Shown: in pieces, positions 19,128 through 58,855 of the stretch
Numbering within the stretch: position 1 is the stretch's first letter
Layout: the number at the start of each line of letters is the position of its first letter
Assembly: GCF_963921235.1 (NCBI RefSeq)
Contig: NC_086108.1
Coordinates: forward strand, 2,108,001 to 2,172,000
Direction of reading: 5' to 3'
DNA: 64,000 bases
DNA from: Mobula hypostoma
Taxonomy: Eukaryota
The notes under the pieces: generated by a model
What the model saw: the letters and a program-made list of their open reading frames with translations, nothing else
What the model was told of the DNA's origin: nothing
Databases searched by the model: none
Program-made: the position numbers and the translations under genes

Positions 19128-20414
19128 GCAACATACATCAAAGTTGCTGGTGAACGCAGCAGGCCAGGCAGCATCTATAGGAAGAGGCGCAGTCGACGTT
19201 TCAGGCCGAGACCCTTCGTCAGGACTAACTGAAGGAAGAGTGAGTAAGGGATTTGAAAGCTGGAAGGGGAGGGGGAGATGCAAAATGATAGGAGAAGACA
19301 GGAGGGGGAGGGATGGAGCCGAGAGCTGGACAGGTGATAGGCAAAAGGGGATACGAGAGGATCATGGGACAGGAGGTCCGGGAAGAAAGACAGGGGGGGG
19401 GGTGACCCAGAGGATGGGCAAGAGGTATATTCAGAGGGACAGAGGGAGAAAAAGGAGAGTGAGAGAAAGAATGTGTGCATAAAAATGAGTAACAGATGGG
19501 GTACGAGGGGGAGGTGGGGCCTAGCGGAAGTTAGAGAAGTCAATGTTCATGCCATCAGGTTGGAGGCTACCCAGACGGAATATAAGGTGTTGTTCCTCCA
19601 ACCTGAGTGTGGCTTCATCTTTACAGTAGAGGAGGCCGTGGATAGATATGTCAGAATGGGAATGGGATGTGGAATTAAAATGTGTGGCCACTGGGAGATC
19701 CTGCTTTCTCTGGCGGACAGAGCGTAGATGTTCAGCAAAGCGGTCTCCCAGTCTGCGTCGGGTCTCACCAATATATAAAAGGCCACATCGGGAGCACCGG
19801 ACGCAGTATATCACCCCAGTCGACTCACAGGTGAAGTGATGCCTCACCTGGAAGGACTGTTTGGGGCCCTGAATGGTGGTAAGGGAGGAAGTGTAAGGGC
19901 ATGTGTAGCACTTGTTCCGCTTACACGGATAAGTGCCAGGAGGGAGATCAGTGGGGAGGGATGGGGGGGACGAATGGACAAGGGAGTTGTGTAGGGAGCG
20001 ATCCCTGCGGAATGCAGAGAGAGGGGGGGAGGGAAAGATGTGCTTAGTGGTGGGATCCCATTGGAGGTGGCGGAAGTTACGGAGAATAATATGTTGGACC
20101 CGGAGGCTGGTGGGGTGGTAGGTGAGGACCAGGGGAACCCTATTCCTAGTGGGGTGGCGGGAGGATAGAGTGAGAGCAGATGTACGTGAAATGGGGGAGA
20201 TGCGTTTAAGAGCAGAGTTGATAGTGGAGGAAGGGAAGCCCCTTTCTTTAAAAAATGAAGACATCTCCCTCGTCCTAGAATGAAAAGCCTCATCCTGAGA
20301 GCAGATGCGGCGGAGACGGAGGAATTGCGAGAAGGGGATGGCGTTTTTGCAAGAGACAGGGTGAGAAGAGGAATAGTCCAGATAGCTGTGAGAGTCAGTA
20401 GGCTTATAGTAGAT
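19128..20414 (-). mobile_element. 5'-truncated Penelope-like element (Neptune-like): RT thumb, Cys-rich linker, GIY-YIG endonuclease and 3' pseudo-LTR
   Basis: Uninterrupted frame 20414-19521: YYKPTDSHSYLDYSSSHP...PCKRNKCYTC...GVIYCVRCSRCGLLYIGETRRRLGDRFAEH...LGSLQPDGMN. Flanked by AGATTAAACCTGA at 19115-19127 and 20411-20423. Confidence 0.93.
19191..19226 (-). ncRNA. Minimal type I hammerhead ribozyme motif in the Penelope pLTR (intact core)
   Basis: Minus strand reads AGTC-CTGACGA-AGGGTCTCGGCCT-GAAA-CGTC^GACT: stem I AGTC/GACT, CUGANGA and GAAA cores, GUC cleavage triplet, palindromic ACGT helix III. Confidence 0.8.
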
Positions 20415-20554
20415 TAAACCTGATTCTGGATGGACATTTTGTGGACTACAATAACCATAAGGCACTACGCAGACTCATGCGCAGCAGGAGCATCCCGCAG
20501 ACCGAGGAGCACGCCGTAGCAAGCCGCACGTTGATTGGTCGGGGCCTGACTGAG

Positions 20555-20564
20555 GGGGATTCCC
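20555..20564 (+). promoter_or_regulatory. Canonical NF-kB binding site GGGGATTCCC
   Basis: Perfect GGGRNWYYCC match about 140-190 bp upstream of the two candidate ATGs of an IkB gene. Confidence 0.75.
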
Positions 20565-20704
20565 GTCGGCCAGGAGGGTAAACAAGGCGCCGGCCATCTT
20601 CATTTGAGGGGCTGAGTCGGGGGGAGGAGGCGCCGCCGCTTTCTTCGCCCTTTCCTGGCGAAACGGAGGAAATAATGGGTGCTCCACCTCACCGATCCGG
20701 TTAG

Positions 20705-21081
20705 ATGAGTTGGAAAAGCGGTGCTGGTCCGACTGTCGAAGCCGACATGGAGATGCTGGTCAACGAGGAGCCGCGGCGGCCGAAGCCGGACCCGGGCAAA
20801 ACGGCTGTGGCTCCGTGGGGCGGCGAGGCCGAGGCCGACGACTGCTACGACAGCGGCATTAGCTCGCTGAGCGAGATGCCGAGCCGCCACTTCGACCCGT
20901 TGGACGAGGCCAAGGCGGCAGGCGAACCCGAGTCGCAGCCCGACGTGTGGCCGAGCAGCGAGCGGAGGCTGGAGGGCGGCGTCGGCCACATCATCCGCGG
21001 CCTGGAGCGGGTGGAGCTCCAGGATAGCGAGAAGAGCAGCGTAATCTGGATGCTGGGCTATTGCAACGAGGACCTGGACTC
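20705..21081 (+). CDS. NFKBIB: IkB-beta-like coding exon 1 (signal-response degron DSGISS and start of ankyrin repeat 1); start may be the in-frame ATG at 20747
   Basis: Encodes ...DDCYDSGISSLSE...LGYCNEDLDS. Phase-2 donor TC|GTGAGT at 21082. ATG 20747 has strong Kozak context (GCCGACATGG); ATG 20705 is weak (TTAGATGA). Confidence 0.85.
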
Positions 21082-21084
21082 GTG

Positions 21085-21450
21085 AGTATGCACGTTCGTG
21101 CTCGGGGGACACGCTCACGCGTGTGCCGGGGGGGTGCTCGGTCACACGTATGCGCGTTCGTTCTCGGGCTCCCGCTAGTGCCCCGGTACGCGTGCGCTCT
21201 TGGGCACACTCACTCATGCACGTTTACCAACCTGTGCTCACAAACGCGTGCACAGCTGAGCTCTGGCTCATGCACAAGCACACCAGTGCTCGAGCGCCTG
21301 CTCACACGCACTTGCACACGTATAACTTCAATGTGTGCAATTACATGCATTGCACACAAATGTGTATGCTTGTACATCTGTACACATGCATTTGTTCGCT
21401 TGCACCTGAGTAAACCTGTAGCTACACACATTTGCTAGCTTGTGTGCACA
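21085..21450. repeat. Degenerate alternating purine-pyrimidine (CA/TG/CG) low-complexity tract at the start of intron 1
   Basis: Runs such as CACGCGTGTGC, GTACGCGTGCGC, TGCACACGTATA and TGTACACATGCA. Confidence 0.6.
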
Positions 21451-22672: not shown

Positions 22673-23444
22673 CACTGGACAACAACTTTTTTTGAACATG
22701 CTGCTGCCTCAGAAAAGTTTTGTTGTTTACAATAGACCCCTTGAGGCTGAATATGAATATCATTTCAGACTACTTGTATCACATGGGAATGTGGTGAAAC
22801 AAGAAATTTATGTTTATTGAATAAAATCTGTTTAATTGCATGACAGTGCTGATGCTTTACAATAGTTGAACTCAATGTTTCATTGATGATTTTCATTTAT
22901 ACTCAGTATCAGAGGCTTTTCATTTAAGTGTCCAACAATAATCAGCCGGCATTGATGGATTCCAGTTGCCCTGATACCGTTTCTCCATGACTGTAATGTA
23001 CTGGTGAAACCTCTCACCGTGCTCGTCACTGACAGCGCCAAGATTTGCAGGGAAGAAGTCTAAATGGGAATGCAGAAAATAAGTCTTTTGTGACATGGTT
23101 TTGTATGATTGAAGCATGTTGTCAACCAGCTGCATGTAGGTTGATGCTCTGTAGATGCCAAGAAAACTTTCAACAACATCCCTGAATGCCTTCAATTCAG
23201 CTTTTTCCAGTCCCACGAGAAGTTGTTGGGATTGCCTGTCGTTGATGACCTGTTTGATTTGCGGACCGACAAGTGTGCCTTCCTTAACCTGAGCATCAGT
23301 TATTCTGACTTGAATTAAGAGATATAGACGATTTAAAAAGACGCATGATAGGGAAATTTTATGTAATTGTCATGATCAGCAGACCAAAATGCTTGGCGTA
23401 TTGTCCCAGAAGCATTCAGGAAGCAGAATCTTTGTTGTTCAGTG
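22673..23444 (-). mobile_element. Internally deleted DNA transposon, Chapaev3-like (CMC superfamily), with TIRs
   Basis: TIRs CACTGGACAACAAC and (reverse complement) CACTGAACAACAAA. Transposase remnant VKEGTLVGPQIKQ...HSHLDFFPANLGAVSDEHGERFHQ...MEKRYQGNWNPSMPADYCW. Family assignment is from recall of the motif. Confidence 0.7.
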
Positions 23445-23592: not shown

Positions 23593-23637
23593 ATGATTCT
23601 CTGTCTCCCCTTCCCCCCCTTAACAAATTTATCAAAA

Positions 23638-23912
23638 ACATAGAAGAGTACAGCACAGGAGCAGGCCCTTCGGCCCATAATGTTGTGCCAAACCAGCTAG
23701 AAAATAAATCAAAAACCGCCCAAAAAGCTAATCCCTCCTACCTACACCATGTCCGTATCCCTCCATCTTCCTCACGTTCTTGTGCCTATCCAAGCATATC
23801 TTAAAAGCCTCTAATGTATTTGCCTCTACCACCAGACCAGGCAACACATTCCAGGCATCCATCACTGAGTAAACAAACTTGCTCCACTCATCCCCTTTGA
23901 ACCTTTAATGCA
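23638..23912 (-). mobile_element. CR1 LINE 3' end
   Basis: ACATAGAAGAGTACAGCACAGG...GGCCCTTCGGCCC is the reverse complement of the tail at 30720-30770. Confidence 0.75.
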
Positions 23913-28508: not shown

Positions 28509-28861
28509 AGTATGTCATGTATTGGGTGCAAAATGTTTTTCTCCCAGCTGCAGCTCTGAGGAAATAAACCTATAACGTTCACTCATCCTGTCAGTATATT
28601 TTTAGAAACCCAGAAAGTCCCTTGTTGTAATCACCTGTGGTACACATCACATTGTACCAGTGCGCCACAACTACAATGGGCATTCAGTTCATGATGCCGA
28701 AACGTCAGCCAGCATCCAGTTGCTGAGAGCTCAGACAGCCTTTTATTTGTCAGTTGTAATTCTTATATGCTGTTTACTAGTTCATATTTAAAACAGACAG
28801 TCAAAATGATTGTCCCCTTTTTGAAATTATCCCACATCCCAATGTCACAGCAACTTGGATT

Positions 28862-28965
28862 TCTTTAAGAAGGGCCTCGGCCTGAAATGTCGACTTTTTT
28901 TTCATTTTTTCATTTCCTGACCTGCTAAGTTCCTCCAGTATTTTGTGTGTGTGTGTGTGTTGCTT
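28862..28965 (+). mobile_element. Degenerate Penelope pLTR end with decayed hammerhead
   Basis: AAGAAGGGCCTCGGCCTGAAATGTCGACT...CCTGCTAAGTTCCTCCAGTATTTTGTGTGT; the CUGA core is lost. Confidence 0.65.
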
Positions 28966-29054
28966 CTTTAACTGGCAGCAGTTTATAGGTTAAATTTGCT
29001 GTTGATTGACCTGGCATTGAGAGTTTTGCACCTTGAAATTTGGTGAAGGTAAAA

Positions 29055-29392
29055 TGTGGAAGGGTGGAGAAACCTTTGTCAAAGTAGGTGTAAGGCGGCT
29101 CCTTCCCTCCGCCAGCCTACAGACCACCCTAGGGCAAGTTGTCGCACCTGCTTAGTGCCCTCCACCCCCGATCAGGGTCACGTGAATCCATGGGAGCAGC
29201 TGGTGGATGGTCGTACGAGCAGCCAGTGCACATCACAAGTGCTGGTTATGTGACCGCTGATGCCAGGCAGACCATCGCTGAAGAGTATTGATAATGGCTG
29301 GGGTCACCCATCTTGTAAGTACACTGCCCAGAAGAAGGCAGTGACAAACCACTTGTGTGGAAAAATTGACTAAGAACACTCATGATCATGAA
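29055..29392 (+). mobile_element. Non-autonomous retroposon with an RTE-like 3' end
   Basis: Ends CCCAGAAGAAGGCAGTGACAAACCACTTGTG...CATGATCATG, resembling RTE/BovB-type 3' ends (from recall). Confidence 0.5.
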
Positions 29393-29634
29393 TACAGAAA
29401 AGAATAAGAACAGCAGTGTGAAGTGGGTCTTCCCCTCTTCTCAGATTAGAGACAGATGGAAGACCATGACTGGGGAAATGGAAAGCTCATACTGGCTTTG
29501 GCTTTGAAGGAGGCCCAAAGAAAATATCTCGACACGCAGTTGGACAATATTGTAGCTTCTCAGCCTCGTGTTGCCTTGTGCAGTCTGTGCAGCAGACACA
29601 GGCCAGTCAGTATGAGGCCCCTAGGTCAATCAAT

Positions 29635-30770
29635 GCTCAGGTTCCACACGGTAGGCTTATTCAGAAAGTTAGAAGGCATGGGATCCAGGGAAGTTTGGCC
29701 AGGTGGATTCAGAATTGGCTTGCCTGCAGAAGGCAGAGGGTGGTAGTGGAGGGAGTACATTCAGATTGGAGGGTTGTGACTAGTGGTGCCCCACAAAGAT
29801 CTGTTCTGGGACCTCTACTTTTCGTGATTTTTATTAACGACCTGGATGTGGGGCTAGAAAGGCGGGTTGGCAAGTTTGCAGACGACACAAAGGTTGGTGG
29901 TGTTATAGATAGTGTAGAGGATTGTCAAAGATTGCAGAGAGACATTGATAGGATGCAGAAGTGGGCTGAGAAGTGGCAGATGGAGTTCAACCCGGAGAAG
30001 TGTGAGGTGGTACACTTTGGAAGGACAAACTCCAAGGCAGAGTACAAAGTAAATGGCAGGTTACTTGGTAGTGTGGAGGAGCAGAGGGATCTGGGGGTAC
30101 ATGTCCACAGATCGCTGAAAGTTGCCTCACAGGTGGATAGGGTAGTTAAGAAAGCTTATGGGGTGTTAGCTTTCATAAGTCGAGGGATAGAGTTTAAGAG
30201 TCGTGATGTAATGATGCAGCTCTATAAAACTCTGGTTAGGTCTCACTTGGAGTACTGTGTCCAGTTCTGGTCACCTCACCATAGGAAGGATGTGGAAGCA
30301 TTGGAAAGGGTACAGAGGAGATTTACCAGGATGCTGCCTGGTGTAGAAAGTATGCATTATGATCAGAGATTAAGGGAGCTAGGGTTTTACTCTTTGGAGA
30401 GAAGGAGGATGAGAGGAGACATGATAGAGGTGTACAAGATAATAAGAGGAATAGATAGAGTAGATAGCCAGCGCCTCTTCCCCAGGGCACCACTGCTCAA
30501 TACAAGAGGACATGGCTTTAAGGTAAGGGGTGGGAAGTTCAAGGGGGATATTAGAGGAAGGTTTTTTACTCAGAGAGTGGTTGGTGCGTGGAATGCACTG
30601 CCTGTGTCAGTGGTGGAGGCAGATACACTAGTGAAGTTTAAGTGACTACTAGACAGGTATATGGAGGAATCTAAGGTGGGGGCTTATATGGGAGGCAGGG
30701 TTTGAGGGTGGGCACAACATTGTGGGCCGAAGGGCCTGTACTGTGCTGTACTATTCTATGTTCTATGTTC
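29635..30770 (+). mobile_element. Young 5'-truncated CR1 LINE, RT C-terminal frame still open
   Basis: ORF to 30645 with [33 protein letters not shown] and HLEYCVQFWSP; tail TTCTATGTTCTATGTTC. Confidence 0.95.
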
Positions 30771-30954
30771 AACATGCATCATGAAAAGGAATCCACTGGG
30801 CACTTGCCTCTCATAAACTTTGCTCGTCTCTTTCCGCTGCCTTCCCTACACCCCGTCAACCTATTTTTGTTTCTTGCAAGATAAGCAATTGAAAATATTG
30901 GGTTTTTGCTGGTGTCTATTGATTCCCACTGAGAATGGTGGACTTGTCCTCCTG

Positions 30955-31350
30955 ACTTTCTGCCTGTTAACGCTGCTGCATTTAGGGCAGAAATGAAGGT
31001 CCTCCTTCTTTGTCAGTGTATCGTGTCATTAACTTCTCCTCATAGTTTTCACTACTGTCAGTCATGTAAGTCTCAGGTGGAGGCTCAGGAATACTGTCAT
31101 ATTTAGATTCTTCATTGCTGTTTCCATAACAATTTAGTTTGACCAGTCAGGGTTGTTAGCCCTGAGCTGAATGTCCAAACCTGGAGGATAGACGGACTAC
31201 TCTTAGTTTAGCCTCTACCTTTTGATCTGTTTGGCATGCGTGACCTTATCAAGAGCCAAAGCTTAAAACCCTGAACTCAGCCAGCCACCATAGCTCTCTG
31301 AATCATTGGGGCACACAAGCCTCCAAACCAGGACAAGGTTGAGTCCTCCT
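30955..31350 (-). mobile_element. ~400-bp non-autonomous element, probably RTE-derived (copy 1 of 4)
   Basis: Shared blocks TTTAGGGCAG, TTCTTCATTGCTGTTTCC, GTTAGCCCTGAGCTGAA, GTTTGGCATG and AAGCCTCCAAACC recur at 39190, 42440 and 54895. Confidence 0.7.
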
Positions 31351-31377
31351 AGAGGTTATCCTCCTGAAGAAAAGGCA

Positions 31378-31625
31378 AATTGAATTGAATTGACTTTAGT
31401 TCTTGCATCTTCACATACTTGAGGAGTAAAAATCTTTATGTTAAGTCTCCAGCTAAATGTGCAATGTGCAATCATAGTAATTTAATAGAACAGTCAGTGT
31501 AATCCAGAGTACACACAAGTCAGCGTGAGTTCATCAGTCTGATGGCCTGGTGGAAGAAGCTGTCCCGGAGTCTGTTGGTCCTGGCTTTTATGCTGCGGTA
31601 CAGCTTCCCTGCAGTAGCAGCTGGT
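31378..31625 (-). mobile_element. Rex1-type LINE 3' end
   Basis: (AATTG)n tail and GATGGCCTGGTGGAAGAAGCTGTCCCGGAG. Confidence 0.65.
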
Positions 31626-32359
31626 ATACAACATTGCTGATTTGGAGGAGATCCCAGAACATTGGTGGAGCAGTATCTAAGCTAGGTGCCAGTCCAATCA
31701 AAAGGAAATTTGGGTGGAAGAAATAATAGAGAATCTTGGTGTGCATTGTGATACTTCTGGTTAACTGGAAAGTGATAAGGGTCCTTAAATTACAAGTACT
31801 CAGAAAATTAATGAAGTGTTGGGAAATTCCAGGAGTAATGTTGGGTCCTGTACAGCTATTGAAATAAACAAGTCAAACATTTCCATCTACTTCACCAAAT
31901 AATCCCTTTAGAGTCCTATTGTTGTATTCCTCTTGTTTACCTATGTAATCTTGTCCCATTATCTCCTGAACAGCAGTCATCAAAGATCTTCTGTTCCCAT
32001 CATTGGGAGCGTTCCCATCATTGGGAGCATTCCCTTTAGCTGTTTATCTCAAGAGGTCTCAATTTTGCCTTTCGACCTTTAAGACTTGGCTTTAAAATCC
32101 AACTCTTTATGAAGCCTCAAGTCATTGCCCAGCGCATCGTCACTTTTTTTGTTAATGTTTCTGTGAAGGACTCAGGGTGTTTTGCTTTAAAGTGACACAT
32201 GAGATAAGCTGCTTTCAGAGCTGGTTTGTAGATCAACTGTAATGCTTGGGCTGAAAGCAAGCTGGATATGCTTTTGAGGAGGTGTTCCCAGAATCCATAA
32301 CATGTCCTTAACACTGATATATCAAATAGGTCTGAGGTGGTGCCTCTATGGTTCAATGA

Positions 32360-33125
32360 AAGCTTATGGAATGCTTGCTTTTGTTAGTTAAGGCATTGAG
32401 TTCAAAAGTCAAATGATTCAGTTTAATATCAGGGAATGTATACAGTATACACCTGAAATTCTTACTTTTTGCAGAAATCCATGAAACAAAAAAACCCAAA
32501 GAATGAGTGACAGAAACGTTAGAACCCCTGAGCCCCTCTTCTCCCCCGCCCCCACTCCTCCAGAGGTTATGTTGCAACTTTGTAAAACTGGTAAGGCTTC
32601 ATCTGGAGTATTGCATACTGTTCTGGTTGCCACACTACGGAAAGATGTTAAGGCTTTGGAGAAGGTGCCGAAGACATTTACTAATACGCTGCCTAGCTCA
32701 GAGGGCACAGGTTGGATAAACTTGGGTTGGTTTATCTGTAGCGCCGGAGGCTGAGGGAAGATCTGATTGAGGTTTATAAGATTATGAGAAGTATAGATGG
32801 TGGACAGAGATGATCTTTTTCCCAGGGTAGAAATGTCTAATATTAGTGGACACGCTTTGAAGGTGAGAGGGGGTAGGTTCAAGGGGGATGTATGGGGTAA
32901 GTTTTTTTACACAGTGGTTGGTGCCTGGAATGATGGTAGAGACAAATACTTTAGGGGCTTTTAAGAGATGTTGGGATTGGCACATGAATATGAGGAAGAT
33001 GGAGAAATATAGACATTGTGTAGGTTGGAGGGATTAGTTTTGAGGGATTTTGATTTACTTTTTAGCTGGTTCACCACAACATTGTGGGCTGAAGGGCCTG
33101 TTCCTGTGTTGTACTCTTCTGTGTT
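32360..33125 (+). mobile_element. Degenerate CR1 3' part, interrupted at ~32418-32562 by a short unrelated LINE-tail-like insert
   Basis: GCATTGAGTTCAAAAGTC|insert|GAGGTTATGTTGCAAC; encodes LHLEYCILFWLPHY; ends in a CR1 tail. Confidence 0.8.
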
Positions 33126-33796
33126 GGATAGTCTAGTTTCTATTTAGCACAATCGATGTCACTTAAAAGATTAGCACCAAATATGTCTAGTGTTCTGTGA
33201 TTGAAACAGGACCAGGAGGTATTGGGGCTAGAGATACAGGAGACATCCATTTATGTTGGCTACAGTCTACTGGTATTGTGAATCTTCAGGTTTGACCTCT
33301 TGTGCTGTGCTTATCTTGCAGAATTCATTCAGAATTCTGAATCAGAATCTCATTCAGAATTCTTCGAACATGTAATTACCCACTTCAAGGCTGAATTGCC
33401 CAGTTCTCTTGTTCTCATTGAACGTGCTATGTCTTAGGCTCATATCTATACAGTATATAGCTAGGGGGTCTAAGACTTTTCCACAGTGCTGTAGTGATTT
33501 TATGCATTGCACTTACTGCTACCACAAAAAAAAACAAGTTTCATGATGTGTGAGTGATGATAAACCTGATTCTGATATGGCTCTCTATTGTAGACTGAGA
33601 GTAGGAAGAGGGGAATCATGGTTGGGAAAAGGGGAAGGGAGAGGGGAGTAAGTGGGAAGCACCAGGGAGACATTCTGTAATGATCAATAAACCAATTATT
33701 TGGAATCAAGTGATCTTGCCTGATGTCTCAGGGCTGGGTGTGCCTGCACCTATGTCATCCCCTAGCCCCAGCATTTCTCTACTACCTGTCCAGCAC

Positions 33797-34021
33797 GTGT
33801 TGGGCACGTGGCCAAGTGGTTAAGGCGTTAGTCTAGTTATCGCAAGATCGCTGGTTCGAGCCTTAGCTGTGGCAGCGTGTTTGTGTCCTTGAGCAAGGCA
33901 CTTAACCACACATTGCTCTAGTCTGTGCGAGGAGTGGTGCCCCACAGACTTCCAATCTGCGCCTTGTAAGGCACGAAAATGCCCGACACAGGCCTCTCAT
34001 GGTCTGAGTCAACGTTCCCTC
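33797..34021 (+). mobile_element. tRNA-derived SINE with target-site duplication
   Basis: A box TGGCCAAGTGG and B box GGTTCGAGCC. Flanked by CCTGTCCAGCAC (33785-33796) and CCTGTCCAACAC (34022-34033). Confidence 0.85.
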
Positions 34022-34180
34022 CCTGTCCAACACCCCTCCCCCCATTGTGCACCAGCATTGCCATTCCAACATCCTTTGCTCCCGCCAGATTTGCAGACTT
34101 GCTCTCTGCTTCAAGTTGACACATGCAGTACTGTGGAAAAGTCTCATTATTTAGGGCACCCTAATTATTTATTTATGCAT

Positions 34181-34182
<2 letters not shown>

Positions 34183-34216
<34 letters not shown>
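34183..34216. repeat. (AC)n microsatellite
   Basis: About 17 perfect AC units. Confidence 0.97.
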
Positions 34217-34218
<2 letters not shown>

Positions 34219-34440
34219 TTTTGGCCTGAGAATATTCATCAGGATTGGAGTCCCATCCTGACTATTTACAACTTTCCATGAAGTTGTCACATCTTTCAGG
34301 CTTTATCCAACTCCATATCATGCTGGTACTCCTTCCAATGGAAATCTGTTCAAATCCCTTAAACATTTAACGTTTTGTGTTGAGAACCTTCATCAGGATG
34401 GGACTCCACTTCTGATGAATGTTCTCGGCCCAAAATGTTG
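34217..34440. mobile_element. Short fold-back element with ~45-bp inverted arms carrying degenerate hammerhead motifs
   Basis: 34217-34261 is the near reverse complement of 34393-34437. CTGATGAA...AAAA cores occur on both strands. Confidence 0.6.
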
Positions 34441-34459
34441 AGTCTTCGAAATGTTGGCT

Positions 34460-35622
34460 AAGCACATTGATGAAGGTAGAGCCGTAGATGTAGTGTATGT
34501 GGATTTTAGCAAGGCATTTGATAAGGTACCCCATGCAAGGCTTATTGAAAAAGTAAGGAGGCACGGGATCCAAGGGGACATTGCTTTGTGGATCTAGAAC
34601 TGACTTGCCCACAGAAGACAAAGAGTGGTTGTAGACGGGTCATATTCTGCATGGAGGTTGGTGACCAGTGGTGTGCCTCAGGGATCTGTTCTGGGACCCC
34701 TACTCTTTGTGATTTTTATAAATGACCTGGATGAGGAAGTGCAGGGATGGGTTAGTAAATTTGCTGATGACACAAAGGTTGGGGGTGTTGTGGATAGTAT
34801 GGAGGGCTGGCAGAGGTTACAACGGGACATTGATAGGATCCAAAACTGGGCTGAGAAGTGGCAGATGGAGTTCAACCCAGATATTGTGAGGTGGTTCATT
34901 TTGTTAGGTCAAGTATGATGGCAGAATATAGTATTAATGGTAAGACTCTTGGCAGTGTGGAGGATCAGAGGGATCTTGGGGTCCGAGTCCATAGGACACT
35001 CAAAGCTGCAGCGCAAGTTGACTCTGTGGTTAAGAAGGCAGATGGTCCATTGGCCTTCAATCATTGGATTGAGTTTAAGAGATGAGAGGTAATGTTGCAG
35101 CTATATAGGACCCTGGTCAGACCCCACTTGGAGTACTGTGCTCGATTCTGGTCGCCTCACTACAGGAAGGATGTGGAAACCATAGAAAGGGTGCAGAGGA
35201 GATGTACAAGGATGTTGCCTGGATTGAGGAGCATGTCTTATGAGAATAGGTTGAGTGAACTTGGCCTTTTCTCCTTGGAGCAATGGATAATGAGAGGCAT
35301 TAATCGTGTGGATAGTCAGAGGCTTTTCCCTAGGGCTGAAATGGTTAGCAGGAGAGGGCATACCTTTAAGGTGCTTGGAAGTAGGTACAGAGGAGATGTC
35401 AGGGCTAAGTTTTTTTTTACAGAGAGTGGTGAGTGTGGGGAGTGGGCTGCTGGCAGCGGAGACGGAAACAATAGGGTCTTTTAAGAGACTCCTGGATGGC
35501 TACATGGAGCTTAGAAAAATAAGGGCTATGGGTAAAGCCTAGGTAGTTGTAAGGTAGGGACATGTTTGGCACAGCTTTGTGGGCCGAAGGGCCAGTATTG
35601 TGCTGTAGTTTTTCTATGTTTC
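34460..35622 (+). mobile_element. 5'-truncated CR1 LINE
   Basis: [35 protein letters not shown] and RPHLEYC motifs, with frameshifts. Confidence 0.93.
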
Positions 35623-36001
35623 ATTCCCCTCATAGAAACTGTATGACTTGTTGAGTTTTCTAGCATTTTGTCTGTTGCTCAAGATTATCAGCATCTGCAG
35701 AATCTCACGTGTTTATCAAGTCCCTTAATTCTGTCTTCTCTTCCTTTACTTTTCAGAATAGGTGTCCTTGTGAATTATTGTGCTAAGTTGTCTGTCATGG
35801 GCCCCTGTGCAAATAGAAGTTGTTGCTAAGGGTGTGATAGCAAATACGGCTTTTGACTGTTGACTGCACAGACTGCTGACTTAAAGTACTTCTTTTAAAT
35901 GCATTGAAGGACTGGAGTTAACCTTTATACAGCTTCTAATAACACACATAAAAGTTGTTGGTGAACACAGCAGGCCAGGCAGCATCTTTAGGAAGAGGTA
36001 C

Positions 36002-36037
36002 AGTCGACGTTTTGGGCCGAGACCCTTCATCAGGACC
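36002..36037 (-). ncRNA. Hammerhead motif, core GAAA mutated to AAAA (likely inactive)
   Basis: Minus strand GGTCCTGATGAAGGGTCTCGGCCCAAAACGTCGACT. Confidence 0.6.
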
Positions 36038-36038
36038 A

Positions 36039-37636
36039 CAGGTTTCATCCACCATCCGTAGAGCATTCCTATGAAACAGTTTGTAAGCCGGAATGTCGTA
36101 AAGTGAAGAAGCAATTACCAGTTATTTATATGGGAAAATTTTGTGAGCGTTTGCAGACGCAAAAATAACCTACCAAATCATGCCAAATAACACATAAAAC
36201 CTAAAATAACAGTAACATATAGTAAAAGCAGGAATGATATGATAAATACACAGCCTACATAAAGTAGAAATACTTTCCCACAATCATTGCCGGCACTGTT
36301 CTCCGTAGCGAAAATCTCACGCAAGCGCTCTTGGCAGGAAACGTCACGCAAGCGCTGTTGGCAAAAACACTCCCTCCAGTAACCTTTAAGCTATAAAGCT
36401 GCCAAATCATACCAAATAATATGTAAAAATACATAGCCTATATAAAGTAGAAATGATGTATGTACAGTGTAGTATCACTTACGGGAATCGGGAAGACAGC
36501 ACCGAGCACACTAATGATGGTGTGGTAGGCTGAGTCATCGGAATTTGGGTGGTGCAGTGGCCCCCACCCTCTGGGCCACCGACGGATACCGATCCGCAAA
36601 GCATGCAGGGGTACAGTGGTATCTGGGAGGCACACAGCACATCTTTAAGAAAAAAGCCGAACGCAATCCCCTCTGATCTGGGCTGACAATTATGTGCTGG
36701 GCGGCAGCTAATTAATTAGCATGTTCATTTCGGCTTTTTTCATAAAGATGTGCTGTGTGCCTCCCGGCAATTGCTGCATTCTCCGCGAATTGGTAACTGT
36801 CCGCAGCCTGGGGTTGGGGTGGTGGGACACTGAGATGAGGTGTCATCTCATCTTCATCTGTTTCCATTAGGGCAGACAGCTCATCTTCTCCTGTGACTGC
36901 CTGCCTTGATGTTGAAGGTTGAGGTTCGTCGTCTGCTGTGGCTGATATGCAAGGCTTGCTTGACTGCTGAGCCTCGTGCATTTTTCTATCGTACAGTTCT
37001 TTGTAAGCACTCAAACCATCCTGCAAATATCCCCTAAACCGACGTACCCTTTCAAAATTAAAGTTGTACTTTATCATTACAGCGAAAATCTCACGCATTT
37101 GCTTCACGTTCCGTTCCTGGATGACTTCACTTTCGCTACTGAATTCGGTTTCGATTGTTATCCTTTCCTCTTCCAAATGCCTCAAATCTTCATCTATCAG
37201 TTCTTGGTCATGGGATGCCAAAACCTCTTCAACATCATCTTCATCAGCTTCCACAAGCCAAACTCACTTTGTCCTTACTTCATGCACCATGATCGAAATG
37301 CTTAATTATGTCTAGTTTTACGCTAAGTGTAACACCCTTACGAGCTCTTCTAGGCTTTTCCGATACCTTAGAACTCATCTTGCTAATGGATGCTCATAGG
37401 CATGTGTTTAAGCAATGCCGGCTAGAAAGCCGTTCCGAATCCCGGGGAGAGCGGCTGCTCGGGGCACGCTGCCTTATATCGTGCGCTGCTTTTTTATCGC
37501 GAGCTGCTTTTTTCACGCGCTGCCTTTCTTCGTAACAATGAAAACACCTTCTGTTAGCGAAAACAGGTAACTAATGTAGGTCTTTCATAACAGTGAGGTT
37601 TTGTAAAGCGAACGTTCGAAAAGCAGGGGACACCTG
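36039..37636 (-). mobile_element. Internally deleted Tigger/pogo DNA transposon
   Basis: Termini CAGGT.../...ACCTG inserted at the Penelope TA. N-terminal HTH-like MSSKVSEKPRRARKGVTLSVKLDIIKHF (ATG 37378) is joined to the acidic C-terminus EADEDDVEEVLASHDQELIDEDL; no DDE domain seen. Confidence 0.82.
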
Positions 37637-38105
37637 TAACTGAAAGAAGAGCTAGTAAGAGATTTGAAAGTGGGAGGGGGAGGGGAAGATCCAAAATGAT
37701 GGGAGAAGACAGGAGGGGGAGGGATGGAGCCAAGAGCTGGACAGTTGATTGGCAAAAGGGATATGAGAGGATCATGGGACAGGAGGCCTAGGGAGAAAGA
37801 AAGGGGGAGGGGGGAAGCCCAGAGGATGGGCAATAACGGATGGGGTATGAGGGGGAGGTGGGGCATTAATGGAAGTTAGAGAAGTCAATGTTCATGCCAT
37901 CAGGTTGGAGGCTACCCAGACGGAATATGAGATATTGTTCCTCCAACCTGAGTGTGGCTTCATCTTTACAGTAGAGGAGGCCGTGGATTGACATATCAGA
38001 ATGGGATTGGGACGTGGAATTAAAATGCGTGGACACTGGGAGATCCTGCTTTCTCTGGGCCCCCTCCCCCTCCCACTTTCAAATCTCTTACTGGCTCTTT
38101 CAGTT

Positions 38106-38141
38106 AGTCCTGACGAAGGGTCTCGGCCTGAAACTTCGACT
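38106..38141 (+). ncRNA. Hammerhead motif in pLTR, sense to the IkB pre-mRNA; helix III palindrome mutated
   Basis: AGTCCTGACGAAGGGTCTCGGCCTGAAACTTCGACT (ACTT instead of ACGT). Confidence 0.65.
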
Positions 38142-38303
38142 GTACCTCTTCCTAGAGATGCTGTCTGGCCTGCTGCGTTCACCAGCAACTTTTATGTGTG
38201 TTGCTTGAAATTCCAGCATCTGCAGATTTCCTCGTGTTTACAGCTTCTAATTATGGTATTAAGTCCCTGTGATTGATCCAGATAGAGACAAAAGACTGTA
38301 GCT

Positions 38304-39972: not shown

Positions 39973-40213
39973 ACGGCATTGCATTTGGCAGTGATCCTTG
40001 AGCGACCAGATTTTATAAAGAAGTTGACAGCTGCTGGAGCGAGCCTCTTGCTGCAAGAGAAGGATGGGAACACTGCCTTACACCTCGCTTGCAAGGAGAT
40101 GGCACTTGCCTGTGTCCAGGCACTCCTGTTTCACCATTCCAGTGACCTACATTATTCCAGTTTGGTGGACCCTTCAGAGTTCAAACAGCAGCTGCATTTC
40201 TATAACTACCAAG
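39973..40213 (+). CDS. NFKBIB: IkB-beta-like coding exon 3 (ankyrin repeats 2-3)
   Basis: TCTCTTTCAG|ACG GCA TTG encodes TALHLAVILERPDFIKKLTAAGASLLLQEKDGNTALHLACKE...NYQ G|GTAAAG. 241 nt, phase 0 to 1. Confidence 0.95.
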
Positions 40214-43490: not shown

Positions 43491-43862
43491 AAAAGCATAT
43501 CAAGGATATCAAAAAACAAGAAATAAATAGGAACATTGGTGAATGGTAAAGTGTTTGGGGTTCCTCTTTATCAGATCTCCAGTGCGTATCATTGGATATC
43601 AACGGAGAGAATGGTTTGCAACCCTTGGGAACATTCACACCTAACCTCAGGACATCACCCTGTTAGGAAGTGGTGCCTCCAGGAATGCTGAAGAACATTG
43701 AACTGAAAAGGAAAAGGTGATGTGTGCAAGAACCAGATAGAAATCAAAGGAAAAGCATGTGATAAATGTAATGAGGGGAACAGGTCGTCTGCTGATTGGC
43801 ACCAAATGGCTTATTGCTGATGTCTGTTCCTTGCATTTTAATGTTTCTCCCTTTTCCCTCAG

Positions 43863-43951
43863 GTTTAACGCCCCTCCACTTGGCAGTAATACTTAATGAT
43901 GTTAAGATAGTGGAGTATCTTCTGCAGTTTGAACAGGACGTTAATGCAAAG
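43863..43951 (+). CDS. NFKBIB: IkB-beta-like coding exon 4 (ankyrin repeat 4), ends at a GC donor
   Basis: CTTTTCCCTCAG|GT TTA ACG encodes (G)LTPLHLAVILNDVKIVEYLLQFEQDVNAK|GCAAGT. 89 nt, phase 1 to 0. Confidence 0.92.
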
Positions 43952-45019
43952 GCAAGTTCTCTAAAAAATCTCTGAAACAGTTTAAGATGCAAGGCACTGC
44001 AGGGTCAATGGGGGTGGGGAGGATGATCAAATAATCTTTATTGCTTTTGCTGTAGTCTGAGGGGGAGGGGACTGGCCCATTTTTTTTTGAATGATTTTGT
44101 CTTTTATCTAGTTTTCTCCCCTCCCACAGGTCCCCTTGCTCAGCTGTGAGTGTGGGTGTGCTGTTCACTGCAGTCTCACTGCGGTGTCCCGTGAGCAGAC
44201 TGCAGAGTGCAAGTCTGGACCAGAACGTGTCCCCCTCTGAGACTAACTAAAGGCTCTGTATGCCACCTTCAGACAGGCATTAGATATCCCATCTCATTTC
44301 ACAAAGAAGAGCACAGGTGTCCATGCTTTGGGCAGTGTTCCTTGCAATTGCAATGGATATTCATGTTCTGCCAAATTGGATCTTCTGACCTCAGAGCTGT
44401 TTGCCTTCAGAGTCAAAGTAAAGTTTATTATCAGAATACTTGTATGTCACTACATACCACCTGAGATTTGTTTTCTTGTGGGCTTACTCAGCAAATCTAC
44501 AGAATAGTAACTGTAACAGGATCAATGAAAGATCAACCAGAATGTAGAGGGCAATCTGTTCAAGTGCAAATATAAATAAATAGCAATAAATAACGAGAAT
44601 ATGAAATAACAGGATAAAAAACTCCTTAAAGTGAAATCATTGGTGTGGGATTCAGGGTAATTAACAGTTCTCAGTAGCTGTTACCGCTAGCAGAATATTT
44701 AATAGATTTTTTTTCTTTGTGCTTTGTTCCTATACCCCATCCTGAGCTTAATTCCTGGAAATGCCCAAAAAGTAGCAGCAGTACTTGTTCAAATATGCCT
44801 CCTAATGGTCATTAAGGTAGTCCAGAAACCATTAGTTATTCTCCGATGTTTAGGATTTTCAACGCACAAAATATCAACTGTTTCTGGCTATAGGAGCACC
44901 ACGCTAAAGTATTGGTTTGCAAGATGCTATTACAGCTCGGGGCAACAGAGTTCAATTGCAGTGTTGGACATTCTCTCCATGGTTGTGTGGGTTTCCTCCC
45001 ACAGTCCTAAAGACCTACT

Positions 45020-51092: not shown

Positions 51093-51910
51093 ACAACAAC
51101 AGGAATTCTGCAGATGCTGGAAATTCAAGCAACACACATCAAAGTTGCTGGTGAACGCAGCAGGCCAGGCAGCATCTCTAGGAAGAGGTGCAGTCGACGT
51201 TTCAGGCCAAGACCCTTCGTCAGGACTAACTGAAGGAGGAGTGAGTAAAGGATTTGAAAGTTGGAGGGGGAGATCCAAAATGATAGGAGAAGACAGGAGG
51301 GGGAGGGATGGAGCCAAGAGCTGGACAGGTGATTGGCAAAAGGGATACGAGAGGATACTGCGTCCGGTGCTCCCGATGTGGCCATTTATATATTGGCGAG
51401 ACCCGACGCAGACTGGGAGACCGCTTTGCTGAACACCTACGCTCTGTCCGCCAGAGAAAGCAGGATCTCCCAGTGGCCACACATTTTAATTCCACATCCC
51501 ATTCCCATTCTGACATGTCTATCCACGGCCTCCTCTACTGTAAAGATGAAGCCACACTCAGGTTGGAGGAGCAACACCTTATATTCCGTCTGGGTAGCCT
51601 CCAACCTGATGGCATGAACATCGACTTCTCTAACTTCCGCTAATGCCCCACCACCCCCTCGTACCCCATCTGTTACTTATTTTTATACACACATTCTTTC
51701 TCTCACTCTCCTTTTTCTCCCTCTGTCCCTTTGAATATACCCCTTGCCCATCCTCTGGGTCCCCCCCCCCCCATCTTTCTTCCCGGACCTCCTGTCCCAT
51801 GATCCTCTTGTATCCCTTTTGCCTATCACCTGTCCAGCTCTTGGCTCCATCCCTCCCCCTCCTGTCTTCTCGTATCTGGCCTGCCTGCTGCGTTCACCAG
51901 CAACTTTGAT
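51093..51910. mobile_element. Penelope-like element: inverted pLTR (-, 51093-~51355) plus GIY-YIG C-terminus and partly deleted pLTR (+)
   Basis: YCVRCSRCGHLYIGETRRRLGDRFAEH is nearly identical to the 19.5-kb copy. TTGATAAACTTGG is duplicated at 51080-51092 and 51906-51918. Confidence 0.9.
51192..51227 (-). ncRNA. Minimal hammerhead motif (intact core)
   Basis: Minus strand AGTCCTGACGAAGGGTCTTGGCCTGAAACGTCGACT. Confidence 0.78.
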
Positions 51911-55860: not shown

Positions 55861-55922
55861 CAGGGGTTCTCAACCTACGGTCCACGGATCCTACAGCTAA
55901 TGGGGAAGGTTGGGAGCCCCAG
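55861..55922. mobile_element. hAT-like MITE copy
   Basis: CAGGGGTTCTCAACC...GGTTGGGAGCCCCAG inverted ends. Confidence 0.55.
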
Positions 55923-56022
55923 TCTATGGGTAATTTGCATTTCATCCCAAAAACTGGATGTGGCCATTACTTCAACTGCTGATGGGTCTCTATCACAGCT
56001 GGGGCTGCAGGGAACAATAATG

Positions 56023-56286
56023 ACGACATGGTAGCATAGTGGTTAGCACAAAGCTTTACAGTACGGGCGACCTGGGTTCATTTCCACCTGCTGCCTGTAA
56101 AGAGTCTGTATGTTCTCATGATCACATGGGTTTCTTCCCACAGTCCAAAGATATACCGGTTGGTAGGTTAATTAGTCACTGTAAATTGTACTGTGCTTAG
56201 TTGTAGGATTAAATGGGCGGATTATGGGACATGGTTCAAGGGGCCGGAAGGGCCTGTTCTGCACTGCATCTCAATCAATCAATAAA
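56023..56286 (+). mobile_element. V-SINE/HE1-like SINE
   Basis: TGGTAGCATAGTGG head, GGTTCATTTCC B-box-like sequence and (TCAA)n tail. Confidence 0.8.
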
Positions 56287-57104
56287 GAAACAAGGAAAGA
56301 ATTTTTTAAATTATATAATTACTCTGGAGGACAGGGAAAGATATTTCAGATACTTACCAGACTTCATTGTGGCATTTGACCTGATACTGTCAAGGTGTTG
56401 CCTCATGATATCAGCTGCTTAGTATCTAATTTGACACATTTTTAATCTGGTCTCTCTCTCCTTCCCTCTCACCCACCCACCACACCCCCCCTTAAACTGT
56501 GAGGATTTTGTGATGATTATGCCCTTCAAGTTCTGTACCCCACTGCTGAAATTCCTGCTTCATGCATTTCTTTGAAGCTGAGTTATGACCCTACTTCAGT
56601 AATGAGAATGAAATTACACATGGGCTATCTGACTACATTTTACATAACTGCTCTGCTGTCATGCATAACACTTGTCAGCTTGGTTAGGTTGAAGCCGGTC
56701 ACGTTTTAGTTCAGTGTGTTTACTTGCTACGATTAGCTCCTCATCTGCAACTGTTGGGATGAAGAACTGTGAAAATGACCCTTTTAAAAAAAAAACCCGT
56801 GCAACAGCATGCACTCGAGACCATTATGCACACATTTAGCACATGCAAGCCAGAGAACTGACCAAGATGTTAGCGTATATCAAGCAGTTGCTAGGCACTT
56901 ATAATCTGTCAGGAGTTTATAGTTCCTCTTTCTGTTCAACAGCAAATCTTGTTGACAAATCATTAAAATTAGTTGATTGTCTCAACAGTTTCTTCCACGT
57001 TTACAATCAGCTGGTGGTGTTATTCTGGCAAGCCAATAAAAATCTGAGGGAAGCATTGTAAGCATCTGCAGTAGTTGTTGAGTTGGCCATAGGTCGAAGA
57101 AGGC

Positions 57105-58855
57105 TTTTGGAATGCGTGCTTTTATTAGTCGAGGCATTGAGTTCAAAAGTCAGGAGGTTATGTTGCAACTTTATAGAACTCTGGTTAGGCCACATCTGGA
57201 GTACTGCGTACAGTTCTGGTGCCTCACTATAGGAATGATGATGAGACTTTGGAGAAGGTGCAGAAGAAGTTTACAAGAATGCAGCTTGGCTATCACAAGA
57301 GGCAGGATAAACTTGGGTTGTTTTCTCTGGAGCGGTGGAGGTTGAGGAGAGATCTGAGAGTTTTGTAAGACAATGAGAGGCATAGATAGAGTGAACAAGG
57401 GAGTATCTGTTTCTCAGGGTTCAAATGTCTAGTACCAGAGAGCATGCATTGAAGGTGAGGATGGGGGGTGGGTAGGTTCAAGACAATAACATATAGGAGC
57501 AGAATTAGGCCATTTGGTCCATTGAGTCTCCTCCACCATTTTATCATGGCTGATCCAGTTTTCCTCTTAGCCCCAATCTCCTGTCTTAGACCATAAGACT
57601 ATATGTCTAGGAGCAGAATTAGGCCATTCAGCCCATTTCATCATGGCTGACCCTGGATCCCATTCAGCCCCATACATCTGCCTTCACACCATATTCTTTG
57701 AAGCCCAGACTGGTCAGGAATATTATCAACTTCCTCTTTGAATATATCCACAGATTTAGCCACCACCTCAGTCCGTGGCAGAGCATTCCAAAGATTCACC
57801 GCACTTTGGCTAAAAAAATAAAAATTCCTCTTTACTTCTGTTCTGAAAGGTGACCCTGAGTTTTGAAGCTGTGCCCTCTAGTTCTGGATTCCCCCTCTCC
57901 ACATGCACCTTGTCTAGTCCTTTCACCATTCGGTATGTTTCAGTGAGATCCCCACATATTCTTTTAAAGTCCAGTGAGTACAGGCCCAAAGGTGCCAGAT
58001 ACTCCTCATATGTTAACTTCTTTATTTCTGGAATCATCCCTGTGAGCCTCCCCTGGGATCAAAGCTATTGACGATGCTCCTCATATGCCTGTGCCTTCTC
58101 CCCATATCCCTCATACCTTGACCTGTCAAGAAGCTATCAATCTCTGCCTTAAATATGCATAAAGACTTTGCCTCCACAGCTGCCTGTGGTAAAGAATTTC
58201 ACAGATTCACCACTCCTTGGCTAAAGAAATTCCTCATCTCTATTCTAAAAGGATGCCCCTCTATTCTGAAGCTGTGTCTCTCCCATCATAGGAAACACCC
58301 TCAACACATTGACTCTATCGAAGCTTTTCACCATTTGATAGGTTTCAATGAGCTCATTTTTCTGAAGTCCAGTGAATATAGGCCCAGAGCCATCAAATGC
58401 TCTTCATATGAGAAGCCATTTCAATCCTGGAATCATTTTCATGAACCTCCTTTGAATCTTCTCCAGTTTCAGCACATCTTTTTTGAGATAAAGGGCCCAG
58501 AACTGCTCTCAGTGCTCCCAAGTGAGGCCTCACCAGTGCTTTATTACATCCTGGCTGCTATGTTCTAATCCTCTTGAAATGAATCAACACACACAAAATG
58601 CTGAAGGAATTCAGAAGGCCAGGCAGCATCTATGGAAGAGTATAGTCGAAGTTTCGGACTGAGCCCCAAAGAGTCCTGCCAAAGGGTCTTGGCCTGAATT
58701 GTCGACTGTGCTCTTTTCCATAGACACTGCCTAGCCTGCTGAGTTCCTCCAGCAGTTTGTGTGTGTTGCTTGGATTTCCAGCATTTGTAGATTTGCTTTT
58801 TAAGATGAATGCTAACATTGCATTTGCCTTTCTCACCACACTCAATCGGCAAATT
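57105..58855. mobile_element. Cluster of CR1 fragments (+ 57105-57480; - 57481-58855)
   Basis: RPHLEYCVQFW on +. Reverse CR1 tails (CATAAGAC...GGAGCAGAATTAGGCCATT) and LGLYSLDF on -. Confidence 0.8.
58585..58804. mobile_element. ~220-bp fold-back mini-element made of two inverted Penelope pLTR ends with decayed hammerheads
   Basis: CAACACACACAAAATGCTG...AGTCGAAGTTTCGG pairs with GGCCTGAATTGTCGACT...CAGCAGTTTGTGTGTGTTG. ATGAAT is duplicated at 58579-58584 and 58805-58810 inside a CR1. Confidence 0.75.

Follow-up and report, generated by a model that had tools for sequence, protein, structure and literature searches.

Minimal hammerhead ribozymes (min-HHRs) of type I have been reported in Penelope-like elements (PLEs) across animals (Cervera and de la Pena, 2014; PMC4209133). 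Their published consensus reads NNN CUGANGAH GNNNNN...NNNNNC GAAAN-palindrome-NU H NNN. As dimers these min-HHRs cleave poorly in vitro according to the same paper, and for the Xenopus dimer elements cleavage was published in only one of nine. For PLEs themselves, 5′ truncation, partial tandems, an inverted neighbour and a tail of 30-40 bp are listed by Craig et al. (2021), who also describe PLE clades that proliferate without hammerheads. Here, we compare these systems with a hammerhead-like motif in a 64-kb stretch of DNA from Mobula hypostoma, referred to as the window.

Motif copies in the window

The preliminary description had listed a dispersed 36-nt motif with coordinates and strands, and the repeated motif is real. 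A search allowing up to 3 mismatches returned four matches in the window and none in 100 dinucleotide shuffles, which bears out the copies given there. By an ungapped scan at an identity of at least 24/36, eight copies were found (0 in 20 shuffles), adding to the four closer ones the decayed copies of Table 1. These agree with the decayed places that had been put at about 28862, at about 34220-34440 and at about 58645-58706. A min-HHR descriptor of our own (CUGANGA, helix II of at least 4 bp, GAAA, a self-complementary helix III, U-H and helix I of at least 3 bp) matched only 19195-19222 and 51196-51223 in the window, both on the minus strand, and nothing in 200 shuffles; exactly these two copies had been called intact. 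They are not letter-identical, since loop II differs. The core boxes CUGANGA and GAAA in type I order and spacing are complete in two window copies, and the remaining six carry point defects. The predicted cut of the first copy, after GUC, falls at the position proposed beforehand.

Table 1. Motif copies, PLE copies and exons of the IkB-like gene, with positions counted along the window.
Feature	Positions	Strand	Remarks
Hammerhead motif, minimal type I, descriptor-intact	19191..19226	-	0 mismatches; predicted cut 19195/19194
Hammerhead motif, descriptor-intact	51192..51227	-	1 mismatch, C>T: loop II CUUG vs CUCG
Hammerhead motif, one defect	38106..38141	+	1 mismatch, GTC>TTC: G16.2>U turns ACGU into ACUU, so that the palindromic helix III is destroyed
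Hammerhead motif	36002..36037	-	2 mismatches vs degenerate pattern, G12>A in GAAA (core) being one; helix I has A>G, which yields a G.U pair
Decayed motif	28860..28895	+	29/36; CUGANGA box lost
Decayed head-to-head motif pair	34365..34443	both	34365-34400(-), 24/36; 34408-34443(+), 26/36
Decayed head-to-head pair	58585..58707	both	58672-58707(+), 31/36, core changes; partner 58667-58585(-) without the 5′ part of the motif
5′-truncated PLE copy (copy 1), young family A	19127..20413	-	C-terminal ORF remnant, 3′ UTR, hammerhead, 68 nt past the cut site
Stop-to-stop ORF, 317 aa	19521..20474	-	PLE part reaches only ~20413
Head-to-head pair, minus arm	51097..51356	-	3′-terminal part of the element: hammerhead and 31-nt tail ending CCTGTTG
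Head-to-head pair, plus arm	51355..51910	+	matches copy 1 at 19809-19287, then 19169-19137
Head-to-head pair, plus arm	38060..38236	+	3′-terminal part of the element with tail
Head-to-head pair, minus arm	37637..38058	-	matches copy 1 at 19713-19226, with a 68-nt gap
Hammerhead and 61 nt, tail-less	35941..36037	-	contains 36002-36037
Putative first exon, IkB-like gene	20705-21085	+	
Ankyrin exons, IkB-like gene	39922-40233, 43796-43975	+	

In the copy at 19191 the order is helix I (AGUC/GACU, lengthened by one U.G pair), CUGACGA, a bulged A, helix II (GGGU/GCCU with loop CUCG), GAAA, the palindrome ACGU and C17. Between A9 and G10.1 only this bulged A is left unpaired, and helix II is better read as this A followed by 4 bp, GGGU/GCCY, with the tetraloop CUCG, its closing pair being either G.U or G-C. 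A G10.1-C11.1 closing pair is found in a second PLE family (family B). Of the 100 exact matches of the family A type that were listed first, 16 show it too, and the other 84 carry U instead of C at 11.1. The resulting G.U pair also occurs in some entries of the published min-HHR alignment (PMC4209133). Helix III is formed by A15.1-U16.1 and the palindromic 15.2-16.2 pair, has no loop and is followed by H17, here as ACGU and then C. The motif agrees with the published consensus in all sequence features, which, together with the GIY-YIG ORF upstream, supports its earlier assignment as a Penelope-type minimal hammerhead. It is shown to be the loop-less minimal type I hammerhead motif of PLEs, located near the 3′ end of the element.

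A check with covariance models, which had been proposed along with the assignment, came out negative for the Rfam models. Scanning the 64-kb window at the gathering threshold gave 0 matches, and scanning 19100-19320 at E<=10 gave three, none of them to a hammerhead family. This is expected, since the Rfam hammerhead models require a helix III hairpin. Separately, four sequencing runs, whose label 'RNA?' is a guess, gave repeat-like depth and no usable joints.

The Penelope-like element carrying the motif

The motif lies about 295 nt downstream of the GIY-YIG ORF and 68-99 nt upstream of the 3′ end of 5′-truncated PLE copies. Copy 1 has neither the 31-nt tail nor an upstream pseudo-LTR. Residues 220-293 of its 317-aa ORF match a GIY-YIG domain (E 3.3e-4) with 21.3 bits, short of the cut-off of 22.6, and are preceded by a CX4CX2C motif. 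Most PLE copies of the window are head-to-head inverted pairs, in which a single arm bears the 31-nt tail. The plus arm starting at 51355 is devoid of the hammerhead-bearing stretch, and the minus arm ending at 37637 breaks off right at the 5′ boundary of the hammerhead. The tail-less fragment at 35941 may continue the latter arm, with about 1.6 kb of inserted DNA between them, or may be a copy of its own. The placement of the motif in Penelope pseudo-LTRs, as given in the preliminary description, holds for full-length copies at the genome level, which carry it in direct pseudo-LTRs, but not for those of the window: among these no direct pseudo-LTR flanking a full element was found, only 5′-truncated 3′ ends, mostly in inverted pairs. 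The window copies are shown to be dead, mostly 5′-truncated passengers laid down by retrotransposition, which decay at the five CpGs of the motif.

A search of the whole genome with a single 32-mer containing two Y positions counted 49,641 exact matches (24,799 + 24,842; controls 0 + 0). Copies elsewhere are 98-100% identical to that of the window, in a sample biased toward young copies, as the reference-based DNA searches return the best-scoring ones. Longer copies encode a reverse transcriptase (RT) and GIY-YIG. In one of them (L037), RVT_1 (E 4.7e-5; 23.6 bits, below the cut-off of 29.6) and GIY-YIG (23.3 bits, above the cut-off of 22.6) lie in consecutive frames; with the GIY-YIG domain of the window copy this identifies an EN+ type PLE. 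The neighbours among protein clusters (Atlas) were generic eukaryotic RT-bearing clusters and serve as a lead only.

Each long copy examined is preceded by a partial copy, which is direct and bears its own hammerhead in five of six cases and is inverted in one. The hammerheads are spaced by 3604, 3514 and 3517 bp (about 3.5 kb) in long copies, and at the genome level the motif is therefore found in both flanking repeats of an RT/GIY-YIG element. Among the 100 exact matches listed first, on contig C1, there are 12 neighbours at distances of up to 3 kb: nine head-to-head, two tail-to-tail and one direct. The copies display the insertion architecture of PLEs, namely 5′ truncation, partial tandems, an adjacent inverted 5′-truncated copy and a tail at one end; the GIY-YIG ORF, the one-arm tail and the head-to-head pairs are all among the PLE features given by Craig et al. 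(2021). Positions 20413 of the window and 64 of the L037 query were considered as the 5′ end of the family and rejected, each being the truncation point of the query copy. The host of the motif is thus shown to be a young and very abundant PLE lineage with RT, a C-terminal GIY-YIG ORF and a CX4CX2C linker, the last of which points to the Neptune/Nematis type as characterized by Craig et al. (2021).

Conservation, folding and possible roles of the motif

Between families A and B, the ORF is 75-81% identical, the 3′ UTR 38-48%, the motif 32/36 (89%) and the sequence after it 52-62%, and the stems are identical. The pairing of the motif differs from that of other species in the published alignment, yet it is maintained. 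Selection in the element lineage has almost certainly kept this PLE minimal hammerhead motif. A chance resemblance, in which a segment of the 3′ UTR fits a loose hammerhead descriptor and was multiplied about 50,000-fold by transposition, seems highly improbable, as the motif forms an island of identity in an otherwise unalignable UTR, the same architecture is reported at the same place in PLEs across animals (PMC4209133), and the descriptor finds nothing in shuffled sequence. In its favour, copy number by itself is no proof of function, and dead copies are unconstrained: in family B, 6.6% of the cells in the motif deviate from the majority state, compared with 2.8-3.3% in the flanks. The stem covariation anticipated across genomic copies was also not found in 47 distinct copies (score 0.122; 500 shuffles average 0.127, and 349 of them attain the observed score), with little variation available for such a test, as the stems do not differ between the families. 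A version of the motif with the palindrome AGCU gave 188 genome matches versus 32 in controls, mostly unrelated or mutated copies, and no large family. An IkB-family-like ankyrin gene does enclose several motif copies, as had been described, and some lie between its putative first exon (20705-21085) and the ankyrin exons, where the host could have taken them over as regulatory ribozymes of that gene. However, all four sense-strand copies (28860, 34408, 38106 and 58672) have defects in the core or in helix III, both intact copies are antisense to or upstream of the gene, and the copies do not stand out in a family of about 50,000 and decay at CpGs. Exaptation by the host is therefore rejected as extremely unlikely.

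As the best explanation we favour, with some reservation, a PLE minimal hammerhead that would act in the dimeric trimming of element RNA. In an active element, the upstream direct partial copy (pseudo-LTR) and the 3′ end would each supply one hammerhead, both on the same transcript and about 3.5 kb apart. Two copies, or two separate RNAs, would pair via the palindrome ACGU to build a shared helix III, and each half-site would cut after GUC. This way, upstream read-through RNA would be trimmed to a unit-length RNA starting with GACU, probably with the assistance of host factors, as the naked fold is weak. Self-cleavage, the partner requirement and the role in RNA processing would here follow the literature by analogy, and cleavage of the motif in vivo in the dimeric way described appears slightly on the doubtful side of even.

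It is possible, though rather unlikely, that the motif is selected in the element lineage otherwise than as an efficient ribozyme, namely as a recognition or pairing signal or as a parasitic passenger with at most residual activity; example roles are a signal for the reverse transcriptase of the element and RNA-RNA pairing via the palindromes. The predicted folds speak for this. The minimum free energy (MFE) structure of the monomer (-10.0 kcal/mol) is a non-hammerhead fold with the core GACG paired with CGUC, and the double-hammerhead fold reaches -9.5, the dimer MFE lying at -28.3 and two monomers together at -20.0. The pair probability of helix III is about 0 in the energy model, and by nearest-neighbour energies the active dimer is strongly disfavoured. 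Moreover, the copies run 68-99 nt past the cut site, which implies that the copied RNA was uncut at its own 3′ hammerhead, the youngest family has the G.U pair at 10.1-11.1, published activity in vitro is low, and hammerheads that 'simply parasitize PLEs' are raised by Craig et al. (2021). On the other hand, two families keep the full hammerhead core and both helices next to a UTR in which only 38-48% identity is left, a binding site alone would need no full catalytic core, and PLE hammerheads of fungi, plants and protists are active as monomers (PMC4209133). An improbable further reading takes the motif mainly as an RNA-RNA pairing device, with cleavage weak or dispensable. The palindrome ACGU and the overlapping palindrome GUCGAC (cut site and helix I) would then unite element RNAs or pseudo-LTR copies, and this pairing would promote template switches leading to the partial tandems and head-to-head copies that dominate the genome. 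In a weaker form of the pairing-device reading, the family may still be active and may offer a vertebrate test system for the dimer model.

Comparison with known systems

Very abundant, and very young by the 98-100% identity of its copies, the family is useful material for a test of the dimer model in a vertebrate, for which the natural two-hammerhead pseudo-LTR arrangements and the natural core mutants (G12>A, G16.2>U) are good substrates. Tens of thousands of ribozyme-like motifs are invisible here to Rfam-based annotation. Apart from this point, the motif is what one would expect in a transposon class that is already known.

With the canonical type I hammerheads of animal satellite and SINE-like repeats and with the Rfam hammerhead families the motif shares the catalytic core, the strand order and the proposed dimer activity via a weak, palindromic helix III, but it has neither a helix III hairpin nor loop 1/loop 2 contacts and no Rfam match. 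Non-LTR retrozymes are reportedly present in animals as well. They carry type I hammerheads related to those of PLE pseudo-LTRs (Li, Clavereau and Pollet, 2026), and in that preprint both PLEs and retrozymes are reported for the single Chondrichthyes species sampled. Retrozymes are short ORF-less tandem arrays, whereas the motif here is carried by coding copies of the PLE and by truncated forms derived from them. Close direct pairs are rare here, accounting for one of the 12 neighbours up to 3 kb apart among the first 100 listed matches. R2 and further non-LTR retrotransposons carry self-cleaving HDV-like ribozymes at their 5′ ends (discussed in PMC4209133). These ribozymes are likewise retrotransposon-borne, with a proposed role in trimming co-transcripts. 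Their fold is unrelated, and the 5′ ends of their copies coincide with the cut site, unlike here.

The closest resemblance is to the min-HHRs of Cervera and de la Pena (2014; PMC4209133). As described there, these are of type I, with CUGANGA and one unpaired H, a helix II starting with G10.1, GAAA, a palindromic ACGU helix III lacking loop 3, a GUC cut site and a helix I of 4-5 bp. They are located in flanking repeats or at the 3′ end of RT/GIY-YIG elements, with many solitary motifs and opposite-strand pairs and very large copy numbers. Helix II has 4 bp and a tetraloop here versus mostly 5-8 bp in the alignment of that paper, and the closing pair of the youngest family is G.U rather than G-C. 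The exact 32-mers counted here exceed the reported motifs of Xenopus tropicalis (about 9,000) and coelacanth (about 4,000). No cartilaginous fish is listed among the entries of that alignment, and a literature search for Penelope hammerheads with 'shark' returned only the shape-descriptive use of this word. Overall, the motif matches the min-HHRs of Cervera and de la Pena (2014), and its element is of a kind already described in other animals.

Hammerhead motifs and their surroundings in the window

The motif of copy 1, a 5′-truncated copy of a Penelope-like element (PLE), begins on the minus strand with AGUC, the 5′ strand of helix I, which is lengthened by one U·G pair, and continues with CUGACGA and one unpaired A. 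Helix II (GGGU-CUCG-GCCU) comprises 4 bp and a tetraloop and is followed by GAAA, CGU-C, the C being position 17, and GACU. Helix III is the self-complementary ACGU, formed by the last A of GAAA and CGU, and has no loop, as read in a preliminary description of this DNA, and the cut predicted from the motif sequence falls between 19195 and 19194, the site that was also named there.

Searching the window with the 36-mer and up to three mismatches gave four copies, at the previously described positions and strands, and none in 100 shuffles. A core-only pattern matched five times (shuffle mean 0.31), and an ungapped scan at ≥24/36 identity raised the number of copies to eight (none in 20 shuffles). 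Our own descriptor of the minimal type I hammerhead (min-HHR) accepted only the copies at 19191 and 51192, the two that had been called intact (none in 200 shuffles).

Features of the window
Feature	Position	Strand	Remark
Motif (36-mer search)	19191-19226	-	0 mismatches
Motif (36-mer search)	51192-51227	-	1 mismatch, within loop II
Motif (36-mer search)	38106-38141	+	1 mismatch, G16.2>U (GTC>TTC)
Motif (36-mer search)	36002-36037	-	2 mismatches, G12>A among them
Motifs (ungapped scan)	28860, 34408, 58672	+	
Motif (ungapped scan)	34365	-	
Copy 1 (PLE)	19127-20413	-	5′-truncated
Stop-to-stop ORF of copy 1	19521-20474		CX4CX2C, GIY-YIG
Head-to-head junction of PLE 3′ ends	38058/38060		
Head-to-head junction of PLE 3′ ends	51355/51356		
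Head-to-head junction of PLE 3′ ends	34400/34408		
Head-to-head junction of PLE 3′ ends	about 58667/58672		
LINE-type reverse transcriptase ORF fragment	18029-18808	-	RVT_1, E 6.6e-19
LINE-type reverse transcriptase ORF fragment	29470-30645	+	RVT_1, E 3.8e-16
ORF with DSGISS	20705-21085	+	putative exon, GC-rich
Ankyrin-repeat exon	39922-40233	+	putative
Ankyrin-repeat exon	43796-43975	+	putative
ORF	22920-23369	-	149 aa
Minisatellite	1-17492		17.5 kb
Dispersed repeat, ~270 bp	23637-23904, 32875-33125, 52069-52317		copies 77-92% identical
Dispersed repeat, short pieces	30711, 35564, 54024, 58850		

Copy 1 ends 68 nt past the cut site. Its ORF lies upstream of the hammerhead motif, stops about 295 nt short of it, and encodes CX4CX2C and, after this, a GIY-YIG domain (E 3.3e-4, slightly below the Pfam cut-off). 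The remaining motif loci are head-to-head pairs of PLE 3′ ends. In two pairs, a 31-nt tail ending in CCTGTTG is present on one arm only, and the arm 51355-51910 is devoid of the motif-bearing stretch.

The two LINE-type fragments are unrelated to the PLE; the minus-strand one adjoins the 3′ end of copy 1 and also matches ALKBH8_N. The minisatellite consists of about 662 copies of the 26-bp unit GGTAGAGACGAGGGGAGTTGGTCACG with 88% matches, a GC content of 0.58 and a GC skew of about 0.65. The 149-aa ORF, without a Pfam match at E≤0.01, looks like a transposase-type remnant.

The preliminary description had placed the motifs around and inside an IkB gene. DSGISS in the ORF at 20705 is presumably the IkB degron, and the best natural single-stretch PDB matches of the ankyrin-repeat exon at 39922 are IkB-beta (2.1e-16), Bcl-3 (9.9e-14) and IkB-alpha (2.1e-13), which support this part of the claim, although ankyrins and designed repeat proteins score higher overall. 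The three plus-strand ORFs are putative exons of one IkB-family-like gene. If they belong together, the motif copies from 28860 to 38141 would be intronic and copy 1 would lie just upstream of exon 1. The sense-strand copies are defective in four of four cases, a number too small for interpretation.

The family in the genome and its conservation

In the 3.48 Gb assembly, exact matches to a 32-mer that includes two Y positions number 24,799 + 24,842, compared with 0 + 0 for the reversed pattern. Searching with the 3′-terminal 204 nt of copy 1 gave 40 scored matches elsewhere with 98-100% identity, so this family (family A) is young. In two longer copies, on the retrieved stretches L036 and L037, an ORF broken by one or two frameshifts matches RVT_1 at E 4.7e-5, short of the cut-off, and GIY-YIG at 23.3 bits, above the cut-off of 22.6. 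Directly before the 5′ UTR of five of six long copies lies a same-orientation partial copy, a pseudo-LTR, ending with 3′ UTR, hammerhead and tail; one of the six has an inverted upstream copy. Spacing between hammerheads was 3604, 3514 and 3517 bp, the last by subtraction of listed positions. The earlier placement of the motif in pseudo-LTRs thus holds at the genome level but not in the window, where no full element is flanked by a motif copy in the manner of a direct pseudo-LTR. Of the exact matches on contig C1, the first 100 listed include 12 neighbour pairs within 3 kb: nine head-to-head, two tail-to-tail and one direct.

Very short head-to-head pairs (G000 C1:2546804-2546875, L001 about 1469-1532, L021 552-610) have their junction at or inside the hammerhead, the arms meeting either at the edge of AGTC or in the CUGANGA box. 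At tandem junctions (end of L077/start of L068, C67:1321700-1321800, and L078), the 3′ end closes in GAATTCCTGTTG, followed by TTTGCGTTTAA and the 5′ UTR, and GAATTCCTGTTGTTTGCGTTTAA is present twice in L078, which suggests a short terminal redundancy of the unit. The PLE 3′ region is also present, at ≥90% likeness, in contigs of sequencing runs labelled as three different coded organisms (A, B and F); in some of these contigs, the hammerhead alone matches and both its sides diverge.

A second, older PLE family (family B, copies about 92% alike) carries the same motif, differing only in loop II and by CpG transitions in single copies. Block-wise comparison of five A and 11 B rows gave 75-81% identity at the ORF end, 38-48% in the 3′ UTR, 32/36 in the motif and 52-62% downstream of it. 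The motif is therefore an island that the element lineage has retained. Within family B, 6.6% of the cells deviate from the majority state in the motif vs 2.8-3.3% in the flanks; the motif is not protected in inserted copies, and its raised divergence is expected, since it holds five CpGs. The hammerhead reading had been said to depend on core conservation and stem covariation: the former is borne out between the families, while no covariation was detected (score 0.122, shuffled mean 0.127; 349 of 500 shuffles scored at least as high).

Searching for the motif with an AGCU palindrome revealed no large family (188 matches, 32 in controls). Among the first 100 listed matches to this variant, the 31-mer CTGATGAGGCCAATCCGGGCCCTGAAAGCTC occurs four times (G000 C1:835909, C2:230138059, C9:107194778, C22:82092456) and could represent a small separate hammerhead-like family.

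Predicted folding and relation to known minimal hammerheads

The hammerhead models of Rfam, a kind of search proposed earlier, gave no match, which is to be expected, since the motif has no hairpin on helix III. The monomer MFE (ViennaRNA) is -10.0 kcal/mol for a non-hammerhead fold, and the hammerhead-like fold with helices I and II reaches -6.0. The double-hammerhead fold has -9.5, whereas the dimer MFE is -28.3 and two monomers together have -20.0; the helix III pair probability is about 0. In the literature, as far as accessible, min-HHR monomers are described as inactive and dimers or trimers as slowly cleaving; one of nine Xenopus dimer elements is reported to cleave. This agrees with such motifs being weak, and catalysis by the Mobula motif is putative.

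Min-HHRs have been known since 2014 from many animals, and cartilaginous fish are absent from the published alignment in the accessible part of that work (Cervera and de la Pena, 2014, PMC4209133). A literature search for shark-specific work on PLE hammerheads found nothing relevant; a 2026 preprint, in its accessible part, reports PLEs and retrozymes in its single sampled cartilaginous fish (Li, Clavereau and Pollet).

As in the accessible description of PLEs by Craig et al. (2021), the Mobula copies are truncated, form partial tandems, lie next to inverted copies and bear a tail at one end. The motif fits the consensus printed for min-HHRs, NNN CUGANGAH GNNNNN...NNNNNC GAAAN-palindrome-NU H NNN, and shares all four emergent features given in the same excerpt: A9 is followed by one additional nucleotide, the G10.1 pair is present, 15.2-16.2 is palindromic and helix I is short (Cervera and de la Pena, 2014, PMC4209133). 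With this fit and the GIY-YIG ORF upstream, the proposed identity is upheld: judged by its sequence, the family is a genuine one of PLE minimal hammerheads, and it adds to a kind of element already described in 2014.
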